Assembly (NCBI GenBank): GCA_030669305.1
Contig: DAOVDU010000003.1
Location: 1-56,238 of the forward strand
From: Candidatus Aminicenantes bacterium
Lineage (GTDB): Bacteria; Acidobacteriota; Aminicenantia; Aminicenantales; Aminicenantaceae
DNA length: 56,238 nt
Direction: 5' to 3'
This document shows, in pieces, positions 1-30,553 of the stretch. The notes beneath the pieces are model-generated. The model was not told the DNA's origin and searched no databases. It worked only from the letters and a program-made list of their open reading frames with translations. Position numbers and translations under genes: made by a program. Positions within the stretch are counted from its first letter, which is position 1, and each line of letters starts with the position of its first letter.

Positions 1-419
1 CCTGTTCCAATGTCGATGATAACTCTTTTTGCTTCAAAGGTTTTTATGTGTCTTATTAATTTAAGCTTTTTATAATAATTTAGGTTTGCCATAAAGAGTA
101 CATTGTCCGTTCCTTTGATCAATTTCAATCCGTCAAAAGGGGTTAAAACCATAGTATCTTTGAGATTTGAAACTTTGTTTGTAATAAAATCTCCCAAATC
201 TAAATTTGATTCCCTCATTCCTAAGAATGTGTGTAGATTTGGCCCTCCCATGTCAGCGTCGATCAGAACGACATCGTTTTCGTGAGTTGCAAGCTGGATG
301 GCCAAGCTGGCTGAAATAAAGCTTTTGCCAGTTCCCCCTTTCCCCCCACCAACAGCCCAGATTGATTTTTGCCTTCCTTCGTGAAAAGACAATATGGGTA
401 TTTTTTCTTCTGAATTCAT
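1..419 (-). CDS. MinD/FlhG/ParA-family P-loop ATPase, 5' part only (runs off window start; alternative in-frame ATG at 479)
   Basis: Manual translation, not in ORF track: MNSEEK...SIWAVGGGKGGTGKSFISASLAIQLA...VVLIDADMGGPNLHTFLG...VIIDIGTG. Deviant Walker A KGGxGKS and IDAD motif. Confidence 0.88.
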   Translation of the reverse strand, partial: MNSEEKIPILSFHEGRQKSIWAVGGGKGGTGKSFISASLAIQLATHENDVVLIDADMGGPNLHTFLGMRESNLDLGDFITNKVSNLKDTMVLTPFDGLKLIKGTDNVLFMANLNYYKKLKLIRHIKTFEAKRVIIDIGT

Positions 420-792
420 CCTAATCCTGCTATTTTTGCCCCAATTGCTGATTCTTTGATCATACAATTTCGTTGTCATCTATTCTATCACTCTATCACA
501 AAAAAAGTTTTTTAGTAAATATAAATTTATTAAAAAAATATTTAATTATCAAGCGAAAAAAATTTAATGAAGGTTTAAAAATTTTACTTTTTTTGCCTTC
601 AAATTTCAATTTTTATCTTAAAACAACCTCTTAGTTCTAAAAATTGAGTTTTTTGCCTTTTACTATTAAATCCTTACTCTTTACTTTTGTATGAGTTTAG
701 AGTTTTGTAACAAAATATGTATTGAATTACTTTGAATATTTTGTTAACTTACAGGCTTATACGAAAGATTCTTTTTGAGGAGCAGAAGTTAG

Positions 793-1140
793 TTGAAAAC
801 TTACGGTGATATTGACAGTAAATTCAGGTTTGTCATTTTAGCTTCAATGAGAGCAAAGCAATTATTAAGAGGGGCAAAGCCTAGTGTAGAATCCAAATCA
901 AAAAACCTCATCCGCGTTGCTCAGGAAGAAGTGAAAAAAGGGTTAATCGACTATGAAATTGTCCAAGACAAGCAGGAATCATTTCATGAGCCAGATGAGG
1001 AAATGTTTATTGGAGAAGAAGTTGGAAAAGGGAGTGGAACAGTTGAAGGGAAAACAGGTGCAGGTGATGAAGAACAGGAAAATGATAAAGGACAGAAAGA
1101 TGATCTAAAAAAGGGGCCTAAAAAAAAGAAGAAGAATTAA
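793..1140 (+). CDS. rpoZ: RNA polymerase omega subunit with charged C-terminal tail
   Basis: IDSKFRFVILASMRAKQL...IRVAQEEV omega signature; TTG start after a GAGGAG RBS. Confidence 0.88.
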   Translation: MKTYGDIDSKFRFVILASMRAKQLLRGAKPSVESKSKNLIRVAQEEVKKGLIDYEIVQDKQESFHEPDEEMFIGEEVGKGSGTVEGKTGAGDEEQENDKGQKDDLKKGPKKKKKN

Positions 1141-1144
1141 TAAT

Positions 1145-1660
1145 TTACGTTTTCTCCTGTTTATCGTTCATAAGTTGGATGTAATCCAGCTTTATGAATT
1201 CTTTTTTTGAGAAACCTAAACCCTTTGCGAATTTAACGATTTCGTTTCGCTGACCCTCTAATTCCAAAAAATTACCGATTGATGTTTCATCAAGGCATAT
1301 TTTCAATCTTTTTTTTCTGTATACTGTTCTATATTTTTTATAGTTAAAGACGGGAAGAAGCCCTAAAGATTTCAGGATTTTTCTTATTTGCTTCTCGTTT
1401 TTTAATTCTGTTTCATATTCCTCCCTTACTTTAAATTTTCGCGATTTCAAAGGAGGCCCCTTAAAAGTTAAAAAAGCTTTTTTATTTATTTTTCGGAGCC
1501 TCAGAGCCTGGCGTTTATTGTACAGAATATTGGAGGGGAAATCATATAAAGTATTTTCCTCGAGATGCCGTTCTTTTTCCACTCGGGCGCCTTGAGCTAA
1601 TACTTTTTCACCAAGGGAACAGATATCTTTAACTCTAATTTTTACTTCAATTTCAAGCAT
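1145..1660 (-). CDS. CYTH-domain protein (class IV adenylate cyclase / triphosphatase family)
   Basis: N-terminal ExExK (EIEVK), ALRLR, LTFKGP, REEYET, YKKYR, LDET..GNFLELEG. Confidence 0.9.
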   Translation of the reverse strand: MLEIEVKIRVKDICSLGEKVLAQGARVEKERHLEENTLYDFPSNILYNKRQALRLRKINKKAFLTFKGPPLKSRKFKVREEYETELKNEKQIRKILKSLGLLPVFNYKKYRTVYRKKRLKICLDETSIGNFLELEGQRNEIVKFAKGLGFSKKEFIKLDYIQLMNDKQEKT

Positions 1661-1699
1661 TATCCACTCAGTTAGTCAGTTAGATAAGGAAATAAGACA

Positions 1700-20468: not shown

Positions 20469-20653
20469 CAATAAAGTAATATGTTAGTCTGTTTATCTGT
20501 TAGCCAGTTAGTCAGTTAATCTGTTAGTCAGTTAGTCGTCTCCCCCTCTCCCAGTCGTTCTTTTTGCTCCTTACTATTATTTTTTTATCTCTGGTGAACA
20601 AATTTATTTGAATTGAGAAATTAATTTGTTATTATATTCAGTCTTTTTTATGA

Positions 20654-21781
20654 TTGGAGGAAATTATGAATATTGGAGTAATAAACGAGAGTTCCAAGAT
20701 TGAGAACAGAGTAGGATTAACTCCGAGTAGTGTTTCTTTATTAGTGGAAAAGGGACATACGGTTTATGTGCAGGCTGGTGCAGGATTAAAAGCAGGATAC
20801 ACCAACGAAGAATACCTTTCTTTGGGAGCAGAGATTGTTTTTACCAAAGAAGAAGCTATTGGCCGTTCAGATATCGTGCTAAACATTTCGCCTCTTAATG
20901 AGGAAGAATGCGGATTAGTAAAAAAGGGCCAGATTTTATTCGGATTTCATCATTTAGCTGTTGCCCGGAAAAATATCGTGGAAGAACTGCTAAAGAAAAA
21001 TATCACCATGATTGGCTATGAGATCGTTCAAGAAGATAATGAAGACCTTCCATTTATCGAGAGTTTAAGCGAAATTGCTGGACAGATGTGTCTTGTCGTC
21101 TCTGGTCATTATCTCCAGACAAGTCAAGGGGGGCGGGGTAAAGTCATAGGTGGAGTTGTTAGCGTTCCTCCTGCAACTGCTGTTGTTGTGGGAAGTGGAG
21201 TTATTGCCAGAAGTGCCATTAAGGCCTTACTTGGAGCAGGAGCGCATACTATTGCTTTAAGCCGCAATATGGAAAAACTGAGAGAATTGGAAGAGATGAC
21301 CTCTGGGAGATTAATAACTCTTATAGCCAGTAAATACAACTTGGCGCGGATGGTAAAAATCGCAGATATCTTGATCGGAGCAGTCCTGAGGCCAGGAGAA
21401 AAGGCACCTGTTTTGATTACACGGGATATGGTCAAGACTATGAAAAAGAGTGCAGTCCTCATTGATTTAGCAATCGACCAAGGAGGCTGTGCTGAAACAT
21501 CCCGATTGACGACTCTCGAGAATCCTACTTATATAAATGAGGGAGTTATTCATTATTGTGTTCCCAATATCACATCTACGGTGAGCCGTACATCTACAAA
21601 AGTATTATCAAATCTGGTTGCACCTTACTTGCTCCAAATAGCAGCACTTGGGATAGAAAAAGCCTTGAAAGAGAATCCAACTTTGGCAAGGGGTGCATAT
21701 GTTTGCCAGGGAAATATAGTTAGGAAAAGTATTGCAGAAAGGTTTAGTATGCATCATAAAGATCTAGCGTCCATTTTATGA
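20654..21781 (+). CDS. Divergent alanine dehydrogenase / AlaDH-PNT family oxidoreductase
   Basis: ENRVGLTP, GAG..AG, HLA, SEIAG, GAVL.PG.KAP.LIT, DLAIDQGGC.ETS, HYCVPN. Probable start about 20666. Several catalytic and cofactor residues differ (see findings). Confidence 0.82.
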   Translation: MEEIMNIGVINESSKIENRVGLTPSSVSLLVEKGHTVYVQAGAGLKAGYTNEEYLSLGAEIVFTKEEAIGRSDIVLNISPLNEEECGLVKKGQILFGFHHLAVARKNIVEELLKKNITMIGYEIVQEDNEDLPFIESLSEIAGQMCLVVSGHYLQTSQGGRGKVIGGVVSVPPATAVVVGSGVIARSAIKALLGAGAHTIALSRNMEKLRELEEMTSGRLITLIASKYNLARMVKIADILIGAVLRPGEKAPVLITRDMVKTMKKSAVLIDLAIDQGGCAETSRLTTLENPTYINEGVIHYCVPNITSTVSRTSTKVLSNLVAPYLLQIAALGIEKALKENPTLARGAYVCQGNIVRKSIAERFSMHHKDLASIL

Positions 21782-21796: not shown

Positions 21797-22246
21797 ATGG
21801 AAAATTTAAGCGAATTCGAAGCAAATCAAAAAGATCTTATTCATATTCTTCATAAAATCCAGGCAGAATATGGTTACATTCCTTCCCAGGCTTTATCTTC
21901 AATCTCAAAGCATTTGAAAATTTCTGAAAGTGAAATCTTCGGAGTGCTTACTTTTTATAAAGCCTTTAGTCTCAAGCCTCGTGGGAAACACCTCGTCACC
22001 ATATGTACGGGAACAGCCTGTCATGTTAGAGGGGCTCCGATGATTTTGGATGAATTGAAAAGGCAGTTAAGCATCGAGCCAGGAGAAACGACAGAGGATG
22101 ATTTGTTTACGTTAGAAACTGTCAATTGTGTAGGTGCGTGTGCTTTAGGTCCTATTGTTATTTCTGATGGCGATTATCACGGTCAGATGAATACAAGAGA
22201 AGTCAATAAATTGATTAAAAAAATAAAAAAAGAAATCAAGGAATAG
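21797..22246 (+). CDS. NuoE/HydC-like [2Fe-2S] subunit (BfuC)
   Basis: TFY..F, ICTGTACHVRG, TVNCVGACALGP. Confidence 0.92.
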   Translation: MENLSEFEANQKDLIHILHKIQAEYGYIPSQALSSISKHLKISESEIFGVLTFYKAFSLKPRGKHLVTICTGTACHVRGAPMILDELKRQLSIEPGETTEDDLFTLETVNCVGACALGPIVISDGDYHGQMNTREVNKLIKKIKKEIKE

Positions 22247-22255
22247 TATTGAATA

Positions 22256-24169
22256 ATGGATAAGATCAGCATCACAAGGTTAGAGGAAATAAAAACTGAA
22301 GTTGCAGAGTCCAGAAAGAAGCAAAAAACCTGCATTACTATCTGCGGAGGAACTGGATGTCATGCCTATGGATGCTTAGAAATAGCTCAAGCTTTTAAGA
22401 ATGCAATAAAGAAACAAAGACTGCAAAACCAGGTAAATGTAAGAACTACAGGGTGCCATGGATTTTGTGAGAGAGGGCCTATTGTTGTCATTCAACCTGC
22501 GGGAATTTTTTACCAAAGGGTTAAGCTTGATGATATAAATGAAATAATTTCTGAAACCATAATTAATAAAAAAGTCTTAGACAGGCTTCTTTATGTTGAT
22601 CCCAGAACAGGTGAGAGAATAGTTGAAGAAAAGGAAGTTCCTTTTTATAAAAAGCAAAAGCGCATAATTTTTGGGAATAACGGATTCATAGATCCCACAG
22701 ATGTCAAAGATTATATTGCCCTGGATGGTTATAAAGCTCTTACGAAAGTCCTCTTTAATTATACTTCAGAAGAGGTCATCAGCGAGATTAAGACATCCGG
22801 TCTTAGGGGAAGAGGAGGAGCGGGATTTCTTACTGGGATTAAGTGGGAAATTTGCCGCCAAAGTCTGGCTGATGTGAAATATGTCATCTGTAATGCAGAT
22901 GAGGGAGATCCAGGTGCCTACATGGACCGGAGTTTGTTAGAAGGTAATCCGCACAGCGTTATTGAGGGCATGATCATAGGGGCTTATGCCATTGGTGCAT
23001 CAGAGGGATATATTTATGTTCGTATGGAATATCCTCTTGCCGTTAAGAATATAACAGTAGCCTTAAAACAAGCCAGAAATCTTGGGCTGCTGGGTGAATT
23101 TATCCTCGGGTCTGAATTCAGCTTTGATATTAATATCTTCAGAGGAGCTGGGGCATTCGTTTCAGGAGAAGAGACTTCTTTGATGGCTTCCATAGAAGGT
23201 CGGCGTGCTTTCCCAAGACAGCGACCTCCTTTTCCTGCTCAAAAAGGATTATGGGGAAAGCCAACCAATATCAACAATGTGGAAACCTGGGCTAATGTTC
23301 CTTTGATTCTTAACAAAGGGGCTGACTGGTATTCTCAGATAGGCACAAAAAAGAGTAAGGGGACAAAAATATTTTCTCTTGTTGGGAAGATAAACAATAC
23401 TGGTTTGGTTGAAGTACCCATGGGAATTACACTGAGAGAGATTGTCTATGATATCGGTGGCGGCATAAAAGAAAACAAAAAGTTCAAAGCTGTACAGACA
23501 GGAGGCCCTTCAGGAGGCTGTATTCCTGCGGAGATGCTTGATTTAAGTATTGACTTTGATACCCTCACGAAAGTTGGGTCAATGATGGGCTCTGGCGGGA
23601 TGATTGTCATGGATGAAGATACATGTATGGTTGATATTGCTCGGTATTTTCTTGAATTTACCCAGGAAGAATCCTGCGGGAAGTGTGTTCCTTGTCGTAT
23701 TGGAACTAGACAGTTGGTAGAAATTTTAACGCGCATCACTCAGGGCAAAGGGGAAGAAGGAGATGTTAAAAAGCTCTTAGATTTGGCAAAGATTATAAAG
23801 GAAGGTTCGCTCTGTGGATTAGGTCAGACTGCTCCCAATCCCGTACTTACAACCATTAAGCATTTTCGAGATGAGTACGAAGCTCACATCATAGAAAAAA
23901 GTTGTCCGGCACTTTCCTGTAAAGACCTGATTGTCTATTACATAGAACCAAAAAAGTGCGTTGGATGTCTTTTATGTTTAAAGAGTTGCCCTGTAAGCGC
24001 TATTAAGGGGGAGAGGAAGATGGTGCATGTGATTGATCAAGATCTATGCATTAAGTGTGGTGCTTGCCTTGATGTGTGCCCTCCAAAGGTAGGGGCTGTC
24101 TCTAAATATACGGGTAAGAAGAGAGATAGAATTTTGAAAAAAGCTTCTTCGATAAGAGATAGAAAATGA
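22256..24169 (+). CDS. NuoF/HydB-like FMN/NAD(H) subunit of bifurcating type (BfuB)
   Basis: N-terminal CGGTGC...GCHGFC [2Fe-2S]; SGLRGRGGAGF, NADEGDPG, GEET; SCGKCVPCR..CGLG; H..EKSCPALSC; two C-terminal CxxCxxCxxxCP ferredoxin motifs. Confidence 0.92.
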   Translation: MDKISITRLEEIKTEVAESRKKQKTCITICGGTGCHAYGCLEIAQAFKNAIKKQRLQNQVNVRTTGCHGFCERGPIVVIQPAGIFYQRVKLDDINEIISETIINKKVLDRLLYVDPRTGERIVEEKEVPFYKKQKRIIFGNNGFIDPTDVKDYIALDGYKALTKVLFNYTSEEVISEIKTSGLRGRGGAGFLTGIKWEICRQSLADVKYVICNADEGDPGAYMDRSLLEGNPHSVIEGMIIGAYAIGASEGYIYVRMEYPLAVKNITVALKQARNLGLLGEFILGSEFSFDINIFRGAGAFVSGEETSLMASIEGRRAFPRQRPPFPAQKGLWGKPTNINNVETWANVPLILNKGADWYSQIGTKKSKGTKIFSLVGKINNTGLVEVPMGITLREIVYDIGGGIKENKKFKAVQTGGPSGGCIPAEMLDLSIDFDTLTKVGSMMGSGGMIVMDEDTCMVDIARYFLEFTQEESCGKCVPCRIGTRQLVEILTRITQGKGEEGDVKKLLDLAKIIKEGSLCGLGQTAPNPVLTTIKHFRDEYEAHIIEKSCPALSCKDLIVYYIEPKKCVGCLLCLKSCPVSAIKGERKMVHVIDQDLCIKCGACLDVCPPKVGAVSKYTGKKRDRILKKASSIRDRK

Positions 24170-26730
24170 TAATTTTCATCGATGGGAAAAAATTTGGAAT
24201 CGAGAGCAAAAAGACAATTTTGGAAGCTGCTCGGGAAAACGAAATCTATATCCCTTCACTTTGTGATCATTCTCGCTTGAGTCCTTTCAGTGGCTGCCGG
24301 CTTTGTATCGTCGAAATCAAAGGACGCAGAGGATATGTTCCCTCATGTAGCACTTATGTTGAAGAAGGAATGGATGTGAAGACAGATTCTCCCCGGCTAA
24401 GAAAAATGAGAAAACAGATTTTAGAGCTCATCCTTTCTGAACATCCGAATGCCTGTCTTATTTGTAGTGAGAAAGAAAATTGCGATGAATATAAGTCAAC
24501 AATCAGGAAGGTCGGCGAAGTTACAGGATGCGTGCTTTGTCCAAACAACGGCCGCTGTGAACTTCAGGATGTCGTAAAAGCTTTGAAAATTGATAAAGTA
24601 AGGTTTCCGTCTGTTTATAGAAATTATGAAGTTAAGAAGAATGATCCTTTTTTTGATCGAAACTACAATTTATGCATCCTGTGCGGAAGATGTGTTAGGG
24701 TTTGTCATGATTTAAGGGGATCATCAGCTGTTTCCTTTGTTTTTAGAGGTTCTAAAGCAGGAATAGGGACAGTATTTGATCAGACACTTCTTGAGGCAGG
24801 CTGTCAGTTCTGCGGTGCTTGTGTTGACGTGTGTCCAACAGGAGCTTTAACTGAAAGAGCCCTTAAGTATGAGACATTGCCTGATGAAACGAGAAAAACC
24901 ATTTGTCCCTTCTGTAGTATTGGCTGTGAGCTTAAAATGGAACTCAAGGAGGGCAGAATATTAAACTCTGCCCCTTCCGAAGATGGGCCTGTAAATCAAG
25001 GGCAGGCTTGTGTCAAGGGACGATTCACGATAAAGGATGCTGTCTATAGCTCCCAAAGAATTCTCAAGCCCATGATCCGAAAAAATAAAGAGCTTGAAGA
25101 GGTAAGCTGGGAAGAAGCTTTGGATTTTGTTGCCAAGAAGCTCAAAAAATATAAAGGGAAAGAGATTGGATTGATTGCTTCTCCTCAAGTCTCTAACGAA
25201 GACAATTTTCTTATTCATAAATTTGCGGAATATGTGTTGAAAACAGAAAATATTGACAGTGTTGTCCGGTTTTCATCTTACGCAGTTTTTCAGGATTTGG
25301 CTCAAAAAAATGGTTTCGAGCTCAATTTGAATTTTAAAATTGAGGATATCTCCAAGGCAAAGACCATATTCCTTCTTGGAGCCGATATCGTTGTTACTCA
25401 TCCAATAATTTGGCTCGAGGTTTTAAGAGCAGTTAATAACGGAGCTAAGCTCATTGTCGCGAGCTCAGTCGATTTTTTCCTTAACCGCTTTTCTTCGCTT
25501 TGGCTTAAGATGAAACCTGGATCTGAATACTTTTTGCTTAGTTTTCTCTCTAAAGTTATTATCGACAAAAGCAAAGTCGAAAATCTGGCCCAGATTGAAG
25601 GTTTTAAAAATCTCAAAAGCTCTCTGGATGAACTCGATTTATCTCAGGCCATTGAAAAAACTGACATTGAAGAGGAAAATATAAAGAAAGCAGCCGAGAT
25701 TCTTATTAAGGAGACGCCGTCGGTTTTTATATTTGGAATGGAGTTGACTCAGCTTCCGTGGGGAAGCCAAAATTTGGCTGGCCTCTGGAATTTATCTCTT
25801 CAGACCCAGGGTCAGCTTGTTCCTCTTGGCTTAGAAACTAATCTAAGAGGTCTTTTTGAGCTGAATCGCCATTGTTCTAGTAACACAAAAGGTTTTAAGC
25901 GAATCATCCAGGATGCTGAAGAAGGAAAAGTTAAAGCCCTTTACCTGGCAAGCCCAATTCCCTATTCCCAGAAAGCGAAGTTTGAATTTTTAGTTATTCA
26001 AGACAGCTTTATGAGTGAAAACATGAAAAAGGCTGATGCTGTTTTACCTGCCGCAAGTTTTGCAGAAATAGAAGGGACCTTTGTCAATGTTGAAGGAAGG
26101 ATTCAGAAATTTAATAAAGTCATTGAACCTCTCGGGGAAGCAAAACCTGATTGGTGGATAATCTCTCAATTAGCACAAAAGATGGGACATAACGAGTTAA
26201 ACTACAATGCCTCTTCAGAAATTTCTAAAGAGATGATTAAAAATATTCCTGGTTTTTCAGGTATATCGTTCCAAAAGTTGAAGAAAGGTGAGAGACTTTT
26301 TATTCAGGAGGAGAAGAAAGGAAAAAAGAAATTTGTACCAATAAAATTCTTTTCCACATCCATTGAAACCAGCAAAGAATATCCGTTTCTTATGCTTGTG
26401 GATTACAATTTAGATTACTACAAAAATCTTGATTTGAGTCAGGAAATCAAAGCCTTTGGAATAATCAGAAATTCAAGATGGTTTAAAATAAATCCAAATG
26501 ATGCAAAAAAAACAAAGCTGAAAGATGGAGAAACCATGGAGGTTGAATCCTCGAAGGGAAAAGTCAAGGGAATTGTTAAAGTTTTAGAATCAGTGCCCAG
26601 AGGAACAATAGTAGCCAGCTTCCTCTGGAATGAAGAAGAAACAATTTCTGTGGCGCGACTTGTCTCTCCTTTGTCTAATGCATCGCATTCTTTAGTATTA
26701 CTGCCCGTAAAAATTAAAAGAGGAAAATAA
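24166..26730 (+). CDS. NuoG/FdhA-like subunit (BfuA): Fe-S relay plus molybdopterin-oxidoreductase-fold domain lacking the metal ligand
   Basis: IPSLC...CRLC...SC, HxxxCxxC, CILCGRCVRVC, CQFCGACVDVCP, CPFCSIGC...CVKG, ADAVLPAA...E.EGTFVNVEGRIQ. Confidence 0.85.
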   Translation: MIIFIDGKKFGIESKKTILEAARENEIYIPSLCDHSRLSPFSGCRLCIVEIKGRRGYVPSCSTYVEEGMDVKTDSPRLRKMRKQILELILSEHPNACLICSEKENCDEYKSTIRKVGEVTGCVLCPNNGRCELQDVVKALKIDKVRFPSVYRNYEVKKNDPFFDRNYNLCILCGRCVRVCHDLRGSSAVSFVFRGSKAGIGTVFDQTLLEAGCQFCGACVDVCPTGALTERALKYETLPDETRKTICPFCSIGCELKMELKEGRILNSAPSEDGPVNQGQACVKGRFTIKDAVYSSQRILKPMIRKNKELEEVSWEEALDFVAKKLKKYKGKEIGLIASPQVSNEDNFLIHKFAEYVLKTENIDSVVRFSSYAVFQDLAQKNGFELNLNFKIEDISKAKTIFLLGADIVVTHPIIWLEVLRAVNNGAKLIVASSVDFFLNRFSSLWLKMKPGSEYFLLSFLSKVIIDKSKVENLAQIEGFKNLKSSLDELDLSQAIEKTDIEEENIKKAAEILIKETPSVFIFGMELTQLPWGSQNLAGLWNLSLQTQGQLVPLGLETNLRGLFELNRHCSSNTKGFKRIIQDAEEGKVKALYLASPIPYSQKAKFEFLVIQDSFMSENMKKADAVLPAASFAEIEGTFVNVEGRIQKFNKVIEPLGEAKPDWWIISQLAQKMGHNELNYNASSEISKEMIKNIPGFSGISFQKLKKGERLFIQEEKKGKKKFVPIKFFSTSIETSKEYPFLMLVDYNLDYYKNLDLSQEIKAFGIIRNSRWFKINPNDAKKTKLKDGETMEVESSKGKVKGIVKVLESVPRGTIVASFLWNEEETISVARLVSPLSNASHSLVLLPVKIKRGK

Positions 26731-27563
26731 TGGCAAAGATTTTGCAGAGAAAACGCTTAGTCCCAAATATTCATCTTCTGGAGGTACATGCTCCTGAGGT
26801 TGCCCAAAAATGTAAACCAGGTCAGTTTGTCATTATCATGCCTGACGAGCGTGGAGAAAGAATTCCATTAACCATAGGGGACTGGGATGAGAAAAAAGGT
26901 TCTGTTACTTCGGTGTTTCTTGTGGTTGGGACTTCAACCCACAAACTCTCGATGCTCGAAGCAGGAGATGAAGTACCTGTCTTTGTCGGGCCTTTAGGCA
27001 AGCCTTCTGAAATAGAAAAATACGGAACAGTCCTTTGTGCTGGAGGCTGTTTTGGTATTGCGGCCATTTATCCCATTGCCCGTGCTCTAAAAGAAGCAGG
27101 GAACAAGATTATCACTCTCTTGGATGTTAAAGCCAATTACCTAATTTATTGGGAAGATAAGTTAAAAGCTGTAAGCGATCAATTTTTTATTTCAGCTCGG
27201 GACAGCTATTACGACTGTAAGGAATACATCCCAAACACACTCGAGAAAATAGTGAAAAAGGAAAAGAAAATCGACCGTGTTGTTTCTATAGGGTGTACTT
27301 ATTTGATGTATACCTGTTCGGAAGCCACAAAACCTTATGGAATAAAGACAGTAGTCAGCCTCAATCCTATCATGGTGGATGGAACCGGGATGTGTGGAGC
27401 ATGCCGTGTAACCATTGACGGAAAGACGAAATTTGCCTGTGTGGACGGGCCAGATTTTGACGGCCATTTAGTCGACTGGGATGAGCTTTTTTCGAGAAGG
27501 AAGTCCTATTTTGAAGATGAAATTCAGTCTTTATGTTACTGGGAAAAGGAAACCTTTCCTTAA
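26730..27563 (+). CDS. nfnA: NfnA/SudB-like FAD/[2Fe-2S] subunit
   Basis: PGQFVI...GERIPLTI, VGPLGKP, SLNPIMVDGTGMCGACRV...FACVDGPDFD. Confidence 0.88.
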   Translation: MAKILQRKRLVPNIHLLEVHAPEVAQKCKPGQFVIIMPDERGERIPLTIGDWDEKKGSVTSVFLVVGTSTHKLSMLEAGDEVPVFVGPLGKPSEIEKYGTVLCAGGCFGIAAIYPIARALKEAGNKIITLLDVKANYLIYWEDKLKAVSDQFFISARDSYYDCKEYIPNTLEKIVKKEKKIDRVVSIGCTYLMYTCSEATKPYGIKTVVSLNPIMVDGTGMCGACRVTIDGKTKFACVDGPDFDGHLVDWDELFSRRKSYFEDEIQSLCYWEKETFP

Positions 27564-27593
27564 AAGCTTAAGACATGAAAGAGTAGAGAAAAC

Positions 27594-29096
27594 ATGAGTG
27601 AGAATAAAAAAGAAATGCCTCAGGAGCTCAAAAAAAGGCTCAGGACCGCGTTTAATGAAGAGTGGCGCAAAGAGCTGCGCAAATCCCTACCTGCGAAGGA
27701 AAGAATAAAGATTCCTCGCCAGAAGATGCCAGAGAGAGATGCTGAAGAACGGAACAAGGATTTTTATGAAGTTAACCTTGGTTTGGAAGCTAAGATGGCT
27801 AAGGCGGAAGCCCAGAGATGCCTGGATTGTGCTAATCCTCAATGTGTGACAGGCTGCCCTGTTGGTATTGATATTCCCACGTTCATAAAACTTATAGAGA
27901 TAGGAGATTTCGAACAGAGTGTTCGAATGATAAAAGAGACTAACAGTCTTCCAGCTATCTGTGGCCGTGTATGCCCGCAGGAAACTCAGTGTGAAGTTGT
28001 TTGCAATCTAAAAAAAGCCACTGGTGTTCCAGTTGCTATTGGAAATTTGGAGCGGTTTGTTGCTGATTATGAGAGAATTAATGGAAATGTTTATATCCCT
28101 CCTATACCGCCGGCAACTGGCAAGAAAGTGGCCATTATCGGAGCAGGGCCTGCAGGCCTTACTGTAGCCGGAGATCTGGCAAGAAAAGGCCATAAGGTGA
28201 CAATTTTTGAAGCCCTCCATATTGCAGGCGGTGTTCTGGTCTACGGAATACCCGAATTCAGGCTTCCAAAAAAAAGCCTTCAAGCAGAAGTGGAATACCT
28301 TGAACGACTAGGAGTTGAGTTGAAAACAAATTTTGTTGTGGGTAAAACTGCTACTCTGAAAGATTTAGAAAACGAGGGATACGATGCGTTTTTTATAGGG
28401 TCAGGGGCAGGGCTGCCGAATTTTATGAGGATTCCTGGAGAAAATTTGATCGGAGTCTATTCGGCTAACGAATATTTAACACGGGTAAATCTGATGAGGG
28501 CCTATGAATTTCCTAAATATGATACCCCCGTGTTTTTAGGAAAGAAAGCAGCAGTGCTTGGCGGTGGTAATGTTGCCATGGATTCAGTCCGAACAGCCAA
28601 GAGACTCGGTGCTGAAATGGCGGCTATTGTCTACCGCCGTTCAAGTGTTGAGATGCCGGCAAGGGCAGAAGAAGTGCATCATGCAGAAGAGGAAGGCATT
28701 GAGTTTCTTTTTTTGACAACCCCAATAAGATACTTTGGGGATGAAAAAGGCCGGGTTAAGGCTATGGAATGTTTGAGAATGGAACTCGGTGAGCCTGATG
28801 CTTCTGGAAGACGTCGGCCTATTCCTATTAAAGGTTCAGAGTTTGTCATGGATGCTGACTTGGTTGTTGTGGCGATTGGAAACAGCCCTAATCCATTGAT
28901 TCCACAGACTACTCCTCAATTAAAAGTTGGAAAATGGGGAAATGTGGAAGTTGATTGGGACACTATGGCTACCAGTATAAAAGGAGTTTATGCTGGAGGA
29001 GATATTATTCGTGGTGGAGCTACGGTTATTTTGGCAATGGGCGATGCCCGAATTGCAGCAGCCAGTATTGATAAATACCTGTCAAATAAAAAGTGA
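27594..29096 (+). CDS. nfnB: NfnB/SudA-like (GltD-family) NADP(H) flavoprotein
   Basis: RCLDC.NPQCVTGCP, CGRVCPQETQCE, GAGPAG, YGIPEFRLP, GGGNVAMD, YRRS, GGD..RG.ATVILAM; directly follows nfnA. Confidence 0.88.
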   Translation: MSENKKEMPQELKKRLRTAFNEEWRKELRKSLPAKERIKIPRQKMPERDAEERNKDFYEVNLGLEAKMAKAEAQRCLDCANPQCVTGCPVGIDIPTFIKLIEIGDFEQSVRMIKETNSLPAICGRVCPQETQCEVVCNLKKATGVPVAIGNLERFVADYERINGNVYIPPIPPATGKKVAIIGAGPAGLTVAGDLARKGHKVTIFEALHIAGGVLVYGIPEFRLPKKSLQAEVEYLERLGVELKTNFVVGKTATLKDLENEGYDAFFIGSGAGLPNFMRIPGENLIGVYSANEYLTRVNLMRAYEFPKYDTPVFLGKKAAVLGGGNVAMDSVRTAKRLGAEMAAIVYRRSSVEMPARAEEVHHAEEEGIEFLFLTTPIRYFGDEKGRVKAMECLRMELGEPDASGRRRPIPIKGSEFVMDADLVVVAIGNSPNPLIPQTTPQLKVGKWGNVEVDWDTMATSIKGVYAGGDIIRGGATVILAMGDARIAAASIDKYLSNKK

Positions 29097-29250
29097 ATAG
29101 TGAATGGTGAATAGTAAACACTGTTATACAGCCGTACTGCAATACTGCAAACTGAAGACTGCCTATTGGTATTTTCGCCCTGTCGCCATTTCTCCGTTTC
29201 GCCGGTTCGTTCTTTTTGCTCCTAACTCCTCACTTCTTACTAATCTTGGA
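29093..29250. repeat. Heptamer mosaic (GTGAATA, ACTGCAA, CTCCTAA families)
   Basis: AGTGAATAGTGAATGGTGAATAGTAAA...; CTCCTAACTCCTCACTTCTTACT. Confidence 0.7.
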
Positions 29251-29257
29251 GGTTTAA

Positions 29258-30553
29258 ATGCCTTGGGTAGATGATTACAAAAAAAAGTTAGTAACTGCCG
29301 AGGAAGCAGTTGCTAAAATTAATAGTCACAACCGCGTTTACATAAGCGGTAACGCTGCAACTCCTTATGTATTGATGAAAGCATTAGCTTCTAGGAAGGA
29401 TGAGCTGGAAGGCGTTGAACTTGTTCATGTTCTCCTTTTAGGGGAAGACCCTCTAGCTAAGCCTGAAATGGAGGGTCATTTTCGCCATAATTCTCTCTTT
29501 GTCGGCCCTGCAGACAGAAAAGCCATAAATGAAGGAAGAGCAGATTATATTCCGATCTTTCTTCACCAGATTCCCAATCTTTTTTATTCAGGGCAAATGC
29601 TCCTTGATGTGGCTGTGCTTCATCTTTCCCCGCCTGATGAGCATGGTTTTATGAGTTATGGTGTAGAGGTTTTGGCCTCCAAGGCTGCTGCAGAGACGGC
29701 GAAGATCGTTATTGCTCAGGTCAACGAAAAGATGCCGCGAGTTCTAGGAGATTCTTTTATTCATGTTTCTCGAGTCCACAAAATTATTGAGGTTTCGGAG
29801 GACCTTCCTCAGCTGGAGAAGAAACCTTTCAGTGAAGTGGAAAGAAAGATAGGCCATTTTATTGCTGAACTAATTGAAGATGGTTCCACTCTTCAGTTAG
29901 GCATTGGAGGAATCCCTGATGCTGTGCTTTCTGCCTTAAAAGGTAGGCAAGATTTAGGTATCCACACAGAAATGGTTTCAGATGGAGTAATGGAGGCCAT
30001 AGAAGATGGAATCATAACTGGGGCCAAAAAGACATTTCATCCATATAAAGTGATTTTGACTTTTATATTAGGGTCAAACAAACTTTATAAATTTGCCAAT
30101 AATAATCCAACATTTGAGGCACATCCTGTAGACTATGTAAATCATCCCTTTAACGTTTCTCAAAACGAGACTATGGTAGCTATAAATTCTGCCGTCGAAG
30201 TGGATATCACTGGTCAGGTCTGCTCTGATTCTATTGGCACCTATATTTATAGCGGCTTCGGCGGCCAGGTTGATTTCATTCGTGGAGCTGCTCATTCTAA
30301 AAAGGGTCTTCCAATCATTGCTCTTCCTTCCACAGCAAAGAAAGGAGAGATATCCCGGATTGTCCCTTTCCTCAAAAGAGGAGCAGGAGTTGTTACAACT
30401 CGAGGTGATGTCAAGTATGTGGTTACAGAATATGGAGTTGCCTATCTGCATGGGAAGAACTTAAAAGAAAGGACAGAAGCTTTGATCAACATTGCCCACC
30501 CAAATTTCAAAGATGATTTAATAAAAGAAGCAAAGGACAGGCATCTTATTTAA
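29258..30553 (+). CDS. Acetyl-CoA hydrolase/transferase family (4-hydroxybutyrate/succinate CoA-transferase-like)
   Basis: GRADYIP.FL, GSTLQLGIGGIP, catalytic Glu in HTEM, GGQVDF.RGA, VTT.RGDV.YVVTEYG.A. Confidence 0.92.
   Translation: MPWVDDYKKKLVTAEEAVAKINSHNRVYISGNAATPYVLMKALASRKDELEGVELVHVLLLGEDPLAKPEMEGHFRHNSLFVGPADRKAINEGRADYIPIFLHQIPNLFYSGQMLLDVAVLHLSPPDEHGFMSYGVEVLASKAAAETAKIVIAQVNEKMPRVLGDSFIHVSRVHKIIEVSEDLPQLEKKPFSEVERKIGHFIAELIEDGSTLQLGIGGIPDAVLSALKGRQDLGIHTEMVSDGVMEAIEDGIITGAKKTFHPYKVILTFILGSNKLYKFANNNPTFEAHPVDYVNHPFNVSQNETMVAINSAVEVDITGQVCSDSIGTYIYSGFGGQVDFIRGAAHSKKGLPIIALPSTAKKGEISRIVPFLKRGAGVVTTRGDVKYVVTEYGVAYLHGKNLKERTEALINIAHPNFKDDLIKEAKDRHLI

Follow-up and report, generated by a model that had tools for sequence, protein, structure and literature searches.

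A bfuCBA-nfnAB operon of Candidatus Aminicenantes that may encode a five-subunit NAD(H)/NADP(H)/ferredoxin oxidoreductase

The DNA considered here is a stretch of 56,238 nucleotides from a Candidatus Aminicenantes bacterium (contig DAOVDU010000003.1, positions 1 to 56,238), hereafter called the window. Within positions 21797-29096, it carries on its plus strand five open reading frames (ORFs), encoding the three subunits of a Bfu-type electron-bifurcating core (BfuC, BfuB and BfuA) and the two subunits of the NfnAB transhydrogenase (also NfnSL, NfnA being NfnS and NfnB being NfnL). An alanine-dehydrogenase-like gene (ald) precedes them. It is fairly likely that the five Bfu and Nfn proteins of this ald-bfuCBA-nfnAB operon, which belongs to an Aminicenantes-type fermenter, make up a single soluble NAD(H)/NADP(H)/ferredoxin oxidoreductase.

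The operon and its five Bfu and Nfn proteins

The five genes are arranged as follows.

21797-22246, plus strand: bfuC, 149 aa
22256-24169, plus strand: bfuB, 637 aa
24166-26730, plus strand: bfuA, 854 aa
26730-27563, plus strand: nfnA, 277 aa
27594-29096, plus strand: nfnB, 500 aa

The intergenic gaps are 9, -4, -1 and 30 bp. The bfuB/bfuA junction reads ATGA and the bfuA/nfnA junction TAATG, where the bfuA stop codon overlaps the nfnA start codon. Such overlaps are usual signs of translational coupling. An earlier note on this DNA had already described five tightly coupled genes separated by these gaps, and the same ORF coordinates were recovered here.

BfuC is a HydC/NuoE-like protein (PF01257, 163 bits; the HoxE and NuoE models match as well) with a thioredoxin-like [2Fe-2S] site made of C70, C75, C111 and C115. 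In BfuB, Pfam delineates a NuoF core (PF01512 and PF10589), preceded by a thioredoxin-like [2Fe-2S] domain at the N-terminus (residues 20-100) and followed by a 2x[4Fe-4S] domain at the C-terminus (residues 562-611). The FMN/NAD(H) domain is of the NuoF type and the B1 [4Fe-4S] ligands are found in CGKCVPC at 474 and at C520. The additional sites comprise the N-terminal [2Fe-2S] ligands (C30, C35, C67 and C71), the His/Cys (B2/Zn) site of the linker (H544, C550 and C555) and the ligands of the C-terminal 2x[4Fe-4S] domain (C568-C608). All of these align with the same residues of solved NiFe-HydB and FeFe-HydB. Moreover, BfuB has at position 416 a GGPSGG loop, a feature cited as bifurcation-specific (PMC12018979). 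The bifurcating NiFe-HydB of A. mobile (7t2r_B) is matched with 852 bits over residues 26-616, with all cluster cysteines and H544, C550 and C555 kept. Scores reach 691-800 bits with FeFe-HydB chains and 729-744 bits with the B subunits of the Nfn-Bfu (Type 1) enzyme Stn/NfnABC, whereas matches with the non-bifurcating NuoF and FdsB proteins stay at about 280-400 bits and extend at the most over residues ~126-551. By its sequence, BfuB has every hallmark of the bifurcating HydB/BfuB proteins. The earlier note had seen the extensions typical of these proteins in this NuoF-like subunit, and it was right in that all the extra sites are present. BfuBC falls within the Bfu family as delimited by Schut et al. 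(2022; PMC9304861) on sequence, and bifurcation with three substrates is predicted.

BfuA contains the Pfam domains Fer2_4, NADH-G_4Fe-4S_3, Fer4_Nqo3, Molybdop_Fe4S4, Molybdopterin and Molydop_binding. From the N-terminus, its clusters are a [2Fe-2S], a His-ligated and two ferredoxin-type [4Fe-4S], and the A5 [4Fe-4S] (C247, C250, C254 and C282). Beyond this iron-sulfur (FeS) part follows a four-domain molybdopterin fold, similar to that of formate dehydrogenase (FDH) and NuoG, without the catalytic residues. With an AlphaFold2 (AF2) model as Foldseek query, the best matches are metal-dependent FDHs (TMq 0.73 with 8j83_A and 0.72 with FdsA, 6tg9_A), NuoG proteins giving 0.53-0.60. In this model, the molybdopterin part has a pLDDT of about 90, and the FeS part, including an insertion with extra cysteines, is below 50. 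Three segments of BfuA deserve attention.

24442-24558, plus strand: duplicated His-ligated cluster motif, BfuA residues 93-131 (HPNACLICSEKENC, 15 aa, then GCVLCPNNGRC-ELQ)
25249-25281, plus strand: degenerate FDH active-site segment NIDSVVRFSSY, with S370 and S371 where FDHs have the Mo/W-ligating Cys/Sec and the catalytic His
25819-25854, plus strand: degenerate Arg loop VPLGLETNLRGL, corresponding to PLRGQNNVQG of FDHs

The VRFSSY residues of BfuA align with ARVCHS of FdsA, the Cys being replaced by S370 and the His by S371; most orthologues have Ser-Pro there. In the Arg loop (PLGLETNLRG), Gly555 stands at the position of the catalytic Arg, with deletions of 6 aa and of ~43 aa on either side. 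A Cys-His pair is found at the aligned ligand site in only 7 of the 150 best representative relatives of BfuA. When FDH-invariant columns are defined as those invariant in seven Cys-His-containing relatives, BfuA keeps 29 of 31 in the FeS part and 49 of 85 (58%) in the molybdopterin part. The mean identity of the Aminicenantes-type orthologues to the window protein is 75% in the N-terminal FeS part, 53% in the molybdopterin part and 46% in the C-terminal part. As judged from these alignments, the FDH active site of BfuA is lost, its Cys, His and Arg all being replaced. The earlier note had read NIDSVVRFSSY as a segment devoid of Cys and His; the Arg loop proves degenerate too. Since these three residues are lost and the molybdopterin columns are eroded, BfuA would need an external catalytic partner. 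K284 and the EGTFxNxEGR motif are kept, and many members of the lineage have Ser at the ligand position. A nucleotide remnant may be bound in BfuA.

The duplicated motif adds three invariant or near-invariant cysteines, C122, C125 and C131. It occurs in 334 of the 376 long BfuA-like proteins compared and is absent from the canonical FDH/NuoG-type representatives P0206, P0235 and P0128. Its position is exactly that at which the A subunit of Stn/NfnABC carries an inserted NfnL-like domain. In BfuA, Pfam gives no Fer4_20 or Pyr_redox_2 match that would betray an NfnL-like domain; NfnL is here a separate gene. The C122/C125/C131 motif might provide an additional metal site or one shared between subunits, or else serve for docking.

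NfnA shows the FAD motif RIPLT at 44, the Gly-rich NAD(H) motif GGCFG at 105 and the [2Fe-2S] ligands D217, C222, C225 and C237. It scores 374 bits with NF004862, 321 bits with P. furiosus NfnI-S (5jca_S) and 251 bits with T. maritima NfnA (4ylf_A). NfnB has two [4Fe-4S] sites (C76/79/84/88 and C123/127/133/137) and FAD and NADPH Rossmann folds, with GAGPAG at 183, YRR at 347 and R223 in EFRLP. This R223 was equated by sequence with the Arg next to the flavin N5, the geometry being beyond sequence. NfnB scores 618 bits with TIGR01316, 563 bits with T. maritima NfnB (4ylf_B) and 537 bits with P. furiosus NfnI-L, as against only 320-356 bits with the NfnL-like domains of Stn/NfnABC. With all cluster ligands and nucleotide motifs present, NfnA and NfnB are, at the level of sequence, canonical NfnS and NfnL.

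Distribution, fusions and surroundings of the module

BfuA homologues of 48-66% identity all come from Aminicenantes-type metagenome-assembled genomes (MAGs), some of which are labelled Eubacteriales, Zixibacteria or Acidobacteriota. The 25 genome loci, together with L001 and L002, belong to one Aminicenantes-type lineage, in which a whole block is syntenic throughout: MBL, amidohydrolase, Na/Ca exchanger, ald, bfuCBA, nfnAB, CoA-transferase and RNase HII. Ten MAG records (L004, L005, L008-L010, L014, L016, L021, L023 and L025), titled 'uncultured Eubacteriales bacterium' or 'Zixibacteria bacterium SM1_73', show this full neighbourhood with BfuA proteins 50-64% identical to that of the window, and their labels look unreliable. 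A profile search started from the nearest non-Aminicenantes representatives again returned mostly Aminicenantes. P0121, P0122 and P0385-P0387 were the sole new ones, and they have the same neighbourhood.

Distant relatives were sought in an exhaustive search of 1.84 billion cluster representatives, with the Aminicenantes lineage collapsed to one entry. In three BfuA-like proteins, P0176, P0213 and P0242, an NfnS domain is fused at the C-terminus. The NfnS domain of the P0176 and P0213 fusions is 48% identical to NfnA of the window, and the BfuA-fused NfnS includes the [2Fe-2S] motif. Such fusions account for 79 of the 115 new matches in a follow-up search and for 82 of the 399 proteins gathered overall; those named by NCBI bear the names of Loki-, Promethe-, Hel- and Thorarchaeota and of Dehalococcoidia. 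In them, NfnS takes the place of the C-terminal Molydop_binding domain, behind a flexible linker, and the molybdopterin part is shorter still. The five-module order BfuC-BfuB-BfuA-NfnA-NfnB is found, with unrelated flanks, at the following distant loci (organism names as given by the sequence source).

L028, Lokiarchaeota: five-module order, BfuA and NfnS fused, flanks unrelated
L029, Dehalococcoidia: five-module order, BfuA and NfnS fused, flanks unrelated
L030, Promethearchaeota: five-module order, BfuA and NfnS fused, flanks unrelated
L033, Ca. Desulfaltia (Desulfobacterota): five-module order, unfused, flanks unrelated
L034, Thermoplasmatales (complete genome): five-module order, unfused, BfuB ORF intact, flanks unrelated

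Variants of the cluster were also met. In two metagenomic loci, L035 (2855-5932) and L037 (2730-5852), BfuB is fused to GltD/NfnL-like Fer4_20 and Pyr_redox_2 domains, giving proteins of 1025-1040 aa. These clusters also have a BfuA-NfnS fusion and a separate NfnL, and so contain two NfnL-type modules each. In L037, a NuoL/Mrp-type antiporter-like gene (Proton_antipo_N/M; 1-1661, minus strand) lies divergently beside bfuC, the only hint of a membrane partner in the contexts examined. In Ca. Lokiarchaeum ossiferum (L036; CP104013, 3789968-3804886), a member of the empty-BfuA family follows bfuC-bfuB among Hdr-like genes. This BfuA has 972 aa and a C-terminal 2x[4Fe-4S] ferredoxin domain without NfnS, and its neighbours are CCG-domain proteins, an HdrA-like protein and FlpD, a probable Bfu-Hdr arrangement. 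From the variant clusters and this Hdr-like context, the empty BfuA is seen to be a general adaptor, of which the form coupled to NfnSL is one recurrent and widespread use.

Returning to the window, two features lie upstream of bfuC.

20608-20635, plus strand: promoter-like site TTGAAT-16-TATTAT with extended TG, directly upstream of the ald-like gene, candidate operon promoter
20666-21781, plus strand: alanine-dehydrogenase-like gene (ald), 371 aa from an ATG preceded by GGAGG; Pfam AlaDh_PNT_N/C

As called mechanically, the ald-like ORF starts at TTG 20654; the version starting at ATG 20666 (371 aa) fits the 369-371 aa of the orthologues. It scores 351 bits with the NCBIfam alaDH model TIGR00518, below the cut-off of 392. 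A PntA-like dI domain was considered for this gene and rejected, the alaDH match covering the full length and the pntA match (114-131 bits) half the protein. Because the ald-like gene ends only 15 bp before bfuC, the transcription unit probably comprises six genes with ald first. Of the Aminicenantes-type loci that extend far enough upstream, nearly all have ald next to bfuC; L011 lacks it. In the region scanned, there were 21 promoter-like sites for 25.9 expected from shuffled sequences, so the site upstream of ald is a weak indication, by its position only. The terminator scan found none after nfnB, promoter and terminator counts being at or below the shuffled expectation. Three unrelated lineages have an amino-acid dehydrogenase gene beside the module. 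It is of the GDH type (ELFV) in the archaeal loci L030 (11327-12667) and L034 (1-361) and ald-like in the window, and in L030 a glutamate synthase gene is found upstream as well.

The next gene after nfnB is, in every Aminicenantes-type locus, a butyryl-CoA:acetate CoA-transferase-like gene (29258-30553 in the window; its 338 bits fall short of the cut-off of 675). In some loci only 18 bp separate the two, and this gene may be part of the same transcript. The 161 bp spacer between it and nfnB measures only 18-80 bp in several relatives and holds three adjoining short tandem arrays (29092-29209): AGTGAAT x3.4, TACTGCAA x3.8 and TTTCGCCG x4.6. No hairpin resembling a terminator was found in the spacer. 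A ribosomal-protein/SecY/RpoA block makes up the right end of the window. As the earlier note had stated for hydrogenase and membrane Nuo neighbours, no gene for a hydrogenase, for a Nuo membrane subunit or for molybdenum cofactor synthesis was found among the window ORFs of at least 120 aa scanned against Pfam, the small ORFs of the ribosomal block having been scanned in part. Genes for the small and large subunits of a NiFe hydrogenase are not in the cluster; nfnA and nfnB occupy the two places after bfuA.

A probable joint complex and its possible electron paths

On the available data, a single complex of the Bfu core and NfnAB is very probable, since the five-module order recurs with unrelated flanks and since BfuA and NfnA occur as single polypeptides. 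Gene fusion, and an order kept across Bacteria and Archaea, are the strongest evidence gathered here for a joint complex, which is well supported by the comparative data, though not proven. As for the synteny survey advocated by the earlier note, the Aminicenantes loci turned out to be uninformative, and it is the five other lineages, with the same order and different flanks, that speak for an association.

It should, however, be noted that several observations weigh against this assembly. Local synteny in the Aminicenantes says nothing of function, because unrelated genes such as RNase HII are conserved too. No extra docking element was found in NfnA or NfnB. In an AF2 model of a natural BfuA-NfnS fusion (P0328; pTM 0.57), the linker 722-732 is disordered and the orientation of the domains is not fixed. 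In addition, BfuB of the window scores higher with NiFe-HydB of A. mobile than with cluster members of other phyla, and NfnA and NfnB score about as high with the stand-alone Nfn proteins of P. furiosus and T. maritima as with those cluster members (tblastn scores in the case of the cluster members, so that the scoring methods of the two comparisons differ). Since the scores of BfuB, NfnA and NfnB are not highest with the cluster members of other phyla, it is possible that Bfu and Nfn became associated repeatedly, or that modules were exchanged.

Other explanations of the locus can be considered. The operon might encode two independent, co-transcribed enzymes, a stand-alone NfnAB and a BfuABC trimer, both serving redox balance in amino-acid fermentation. 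NfnA and NfnB are indeed canonical and closest to the stand-alone Nfn of T. maritima and P. furiosus, and in Thermotoga and Pyrococcus pairs of this kind function on their own, a further point against a joint complex. Moreover, in C. autoethanogenum an nfn gene lies beside the genes of a multimeric [FeFe] hydrogenase without a known complex (PMC6405883), and the Aminicenantes synteny, reaching as it does into unrelated genes, would suit separate enzymes. We nevertheless regard this explanation as rather unlikely: a BfuABC enzyme whose A subunit is catalytically empty has no third substrate of its own, and five modules that travel together across phyla and domains while their flanks differ, with BfuA and NfnS covalently fused in many genomes, are hard to reconcile with unrelated enzymes. 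Alternatively, BfuCBA could be the electron-input module of a partner encoded elsewhere, such as a NiFe small/large-subunit pair, an Hdr-like module or an 11-subunit Nuo, NfnAB then being a bystander. In support of this, Nuo-Bfu and NiFe-Bfu types exist, the best solved match of BfuB is NiFe-HydB of A. mobile, and relatives of the empty BfuA stand among Hdr-like genes (L036) or, in the variant cluster L037, near a NuoL-like gene. Genes for such a distant partner are, however, absent from the window ORFs scanned. In every characterised or proposed Type 2 or Type 3 Bfu enzyme, the partner genes share the cluster, a place that is held here by nfnA and nfnB. A distant partner thus appears improbable.

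Still another proposal makes BfuA a functional Fdh-Bfu, a Mo/W formate dehydrogenase whose metal ligand might be Ser, with NADPH supplied or consumed separately by NfnAB. Its relatives are annotated 'formate dehydrogenase alpha subunit' and its fold is FDH-like (TMq 0.73). Ser is common at the ligand position in the lineage, and 58% of the FDH-invariant columns are retained, as well as K284 and EGTFxNxEGR. Against this, none of the catalytic FDH residues Cys/Sec, His and Arg remains, the residue following the Ser varies (mostly Pro) and two loops around the Arg are deleted. The molybdopterin part also evolves fastest (53% and 46% identity, compared with 75% for the FeS part) and is further truncated in the fused relatives, and the equivalent domains of Stn and of Csac NfnABC contain no pterin. 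We judge formate oxidation by BfuA to be very improbable.

For the joint complex, the following organisation can be proposed. BfuBC would be the HydBC-type FMN/FeS bifurcating core, binding NAD(H) and ferredoxin. BfuA, with its FeS chain and its pterin-less FDH-like body, would be both the conduit and the scaffold that holds the NfnS/NfnL pair. NfnL would bind NADP(H), NfnS would provide a second NAD(H) site, and BfuA would pass electrons between NfnSL and the BfuBC core. In this way, the complex would connect reduced ferredoxin and the NADPH pool with the NADH that amino-acid dehydrogenases produce. The recurrence of ald- or GDH-type genes beside the module fits a function in which NAD(P)H from the oxidation of amino acids is disposed of or redistributed. 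That the subunits assemble physically in this organism is an inference, as are the route and direction of the electrons and any bifurcation at NfnL.

The route can be discussed with the help of Stn/NfnABC, in which electrons run from FAD through the NfnL clusters and the N-terminal clusters of the A subunit to B1 and FMN, the Fdh-like branch being a dead end. By analogy, the [4Fe-4S] chain of NfnL probably hands electrons to the N-terminal clusters of BfuA. An entry near these clusters is, on the same model, at least as likely as one through the empty pterin pocket. The earlier note had proposed that the empty A subunit wires the Bfu core to NfnAB in one doubly bifurcating super-complex. Of this proposal, the joint complex gains from the order conserved across phyla and from the fusions. 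The empty domain as the wire is neither the sole nor the most likely route, since the Fdh-like branch of Stn is off the electron path and NADPH electrons enter near the N-terminal clusters. Since NfnS replaces the C-terminal Molydop_binding domain in the fusions, its contact with BfuA may lie near the A5 cluster.

Two schemes can be considered. In scheme (a), which is Stn-like, NfnL would only deliver NADPH electrons, with the net reaction 2 NADPH + NAD+ + 2 Fd(ox) = 2 NADP+ + NADH + 2 Fd(red), where Fd is ferredoxin. Scheme (b) is a serial double bifurcation. NfnL would split the NADPH electrons and send the high-potential one via NfnS to NAD+. The low-potential electron would go through BfuA into BfuBC rather than to free ferredoxin, and BfuBC would bifurcate again to NAD+ and ferredoxin. 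The net reaction would then be 4 NADPH + 3 NAD+ + 2 Fd(ox) = 4 NADP+ + 3 NADH + 2 Fd(red), that of a geared transhydrogenase. Given physiological potentials of -380 mV for NADP and -280 mV for NAD (PMC9304861), we calculate that scheme (b) could push a ferredoxin-type carrier to about -680 mV. Run in reverse, it would by our own arithmetic yield NADPH at half the usual ferredoxin cost. Such a putative two-stage bifurcating machine is possible, though we are inclined to doubt it.

Significance and comparison with known systems

In the open-access text searched, no description of BfuABC and NfnSL as one system was found. Papers of 2025 treat NfnSL and NfnABC/Stn as unrelated alternatives, organisms typically having one or the other (PMC12018979), and in a comparison of Asgard archaea 'FdhA-HydBC' and 'NfnAB' appear as two distinct enzymes. 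The present locus and its relatives contradict the either/or view: a third architecture, in which a HydBC-type core stands together with a complete NfnSL, is widespread, being found in Aminicenantes-type bacteria, Desulfobacterota, Dehalococcoidia, Thermoplasmatales, and Loki-, Hel- and Thorarchaeota. A problem of annotation adds to this, relatives of BfuA being called 'formate dehydrogenase alpha subunit' even though only 7 of the 150 nearest representatives have the Cys-His pair. Should the five subunits form one complex, class II benzoyl-CoA reductase (BCRII) would no longer be the only example of bifurcation modules coupled in a hierarchy. Such a complex would also carry a directly testable prediction of stoichiometry and bear on the NADH/NADPH/ferredoxin balance of amino-acid-fermenting syntrophs, Asgard archaea included. 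The fused form is common in Asgard archaea, the archaea most closely related to eukaryotes, so that the system, if double bifurcation is real, would rank as one of their core redox devices.

The NfnSL enzymes of T. maritima and P. furiosus (4ylf and 5jca) have the same subunits, cofactor ligands and nucleotide motifs as NfnA and NfnB of the window. They are, however, free heterodimers whose distal [4Fe-4S] reduces ferredoxin, whereas the pair studied here is encoded behind BfuA and is fused to BfuA in other phyla. At the level of sequence, these fusions and the synteny argue against a free NfnSL dimer. NCBIfam PRK12814 matches both the N-terminus of BfuA and NfnB. The NADPH-dependent SfrAB of Geobacter presumably shows a similar pairing to that of BfuA with NfnB, an FdhA-like FeS subunit with a GltD-like NADPH flavoprotein, but is not known to have a BfuBC core or NfnS.

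In NiFe-HydABCSL of A. mobile (Type 3 Bfu, 7t2r), the A subunit is also a cofactor-less NuoG-like conduit with two extra catalytic subunits. In contrast to the window, these are the small and large subunits of a NiFe hydrogenase, not NfnS and NfnL, and HydA is shorter (692 aa) and appears, judging from alignment coordinates, to lack the duplicated Cys motif. In BCRII BamB-I (Bam-Bfu), a HydBC-type con/bifurcating module is likewise linked, via the BfuA-like conduit BamI, to a second flavin-based bifurcating module. There, the second module is of the HdrA type, with a tungsten benzoyl-CoA reductase and an electron-transfer flavoprotein as outputs, while here it is NfnSL, with pyridine nucleotides and ferredoxin as substrates. 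BCRII is an experimental precedent for the coupling of a HydBC-type module to a second bifurcating module.

Among the Bfu types distinguished by Schut et al. (FeFe, NiFe, Nfn (Type 1), Fdh, F420, Wor, Bam, Codh, Por, Mbh, Nuo and Rub; PMC9304861), the closest to the present system is Stn/NfnABC, known from Sporomusa ovata, Caldicellulosiruptor saccharolyticus and Thermococcus sibiricus (PDB 8oh5, 9bov and 9n5u; PMC10482914; PMC11829005). Cryo-electron microscopy of its A subunit revealed an N-terminal [2Fe-2S], an inserted GltD/NfnL-like FAD/NADPH domain, the NuoG clusters and a pterin-less FdhF-like domain. In Stn, the inserted NfnL-like domain no longer bifurcates, the FdhF-like domain is off-pathway and 'there is no NfnA homologue in Stn'. 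Common to both systems are a HydBC-type BfuBC core, a pterin-less Fdh-like A subunit, an NfnL/GltD-type module and, as far as the substrates can be predicted for the window system, the set NAD(H), NADP(H) and ferredoxin. In the window, however, NfnL is separate and canonical (563 bits with T. maritima NfnB versus 320-356 bits with Stn-type domains), whereas that of Stn is inserted in the A subunit, at a point where BfuA carries only the three-Cys duplicated motif. A complete NfnS is added. The comparison with the Bfu types suggested by the earlier note therefore cuts both ways: the core, the empty domain and the NADPH module are shared with Stn/NfnABC, while the inserted NfnL and the absence of NfnS are not found here. 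The match with an already characterised Bfu type, which the earlier note would have taken as a refutation, is a partial one. Likewise, the earlier view of a possibly undescribed system holds for the architecture containing NfnS, either unfused or with the A and S subunits fused, and does not hold for the general idea. The combination of a Bfu core, an empty Fdh-like domain and an NfnL-type NADPH module has already been characterised as Stn/NfnABC; new are the separate canonical NfnL and NfnS. In terms of function, the window system is probably best described as an unfused relative of the Stn/NfnABC transhydrogenase that additionally has NfnS.

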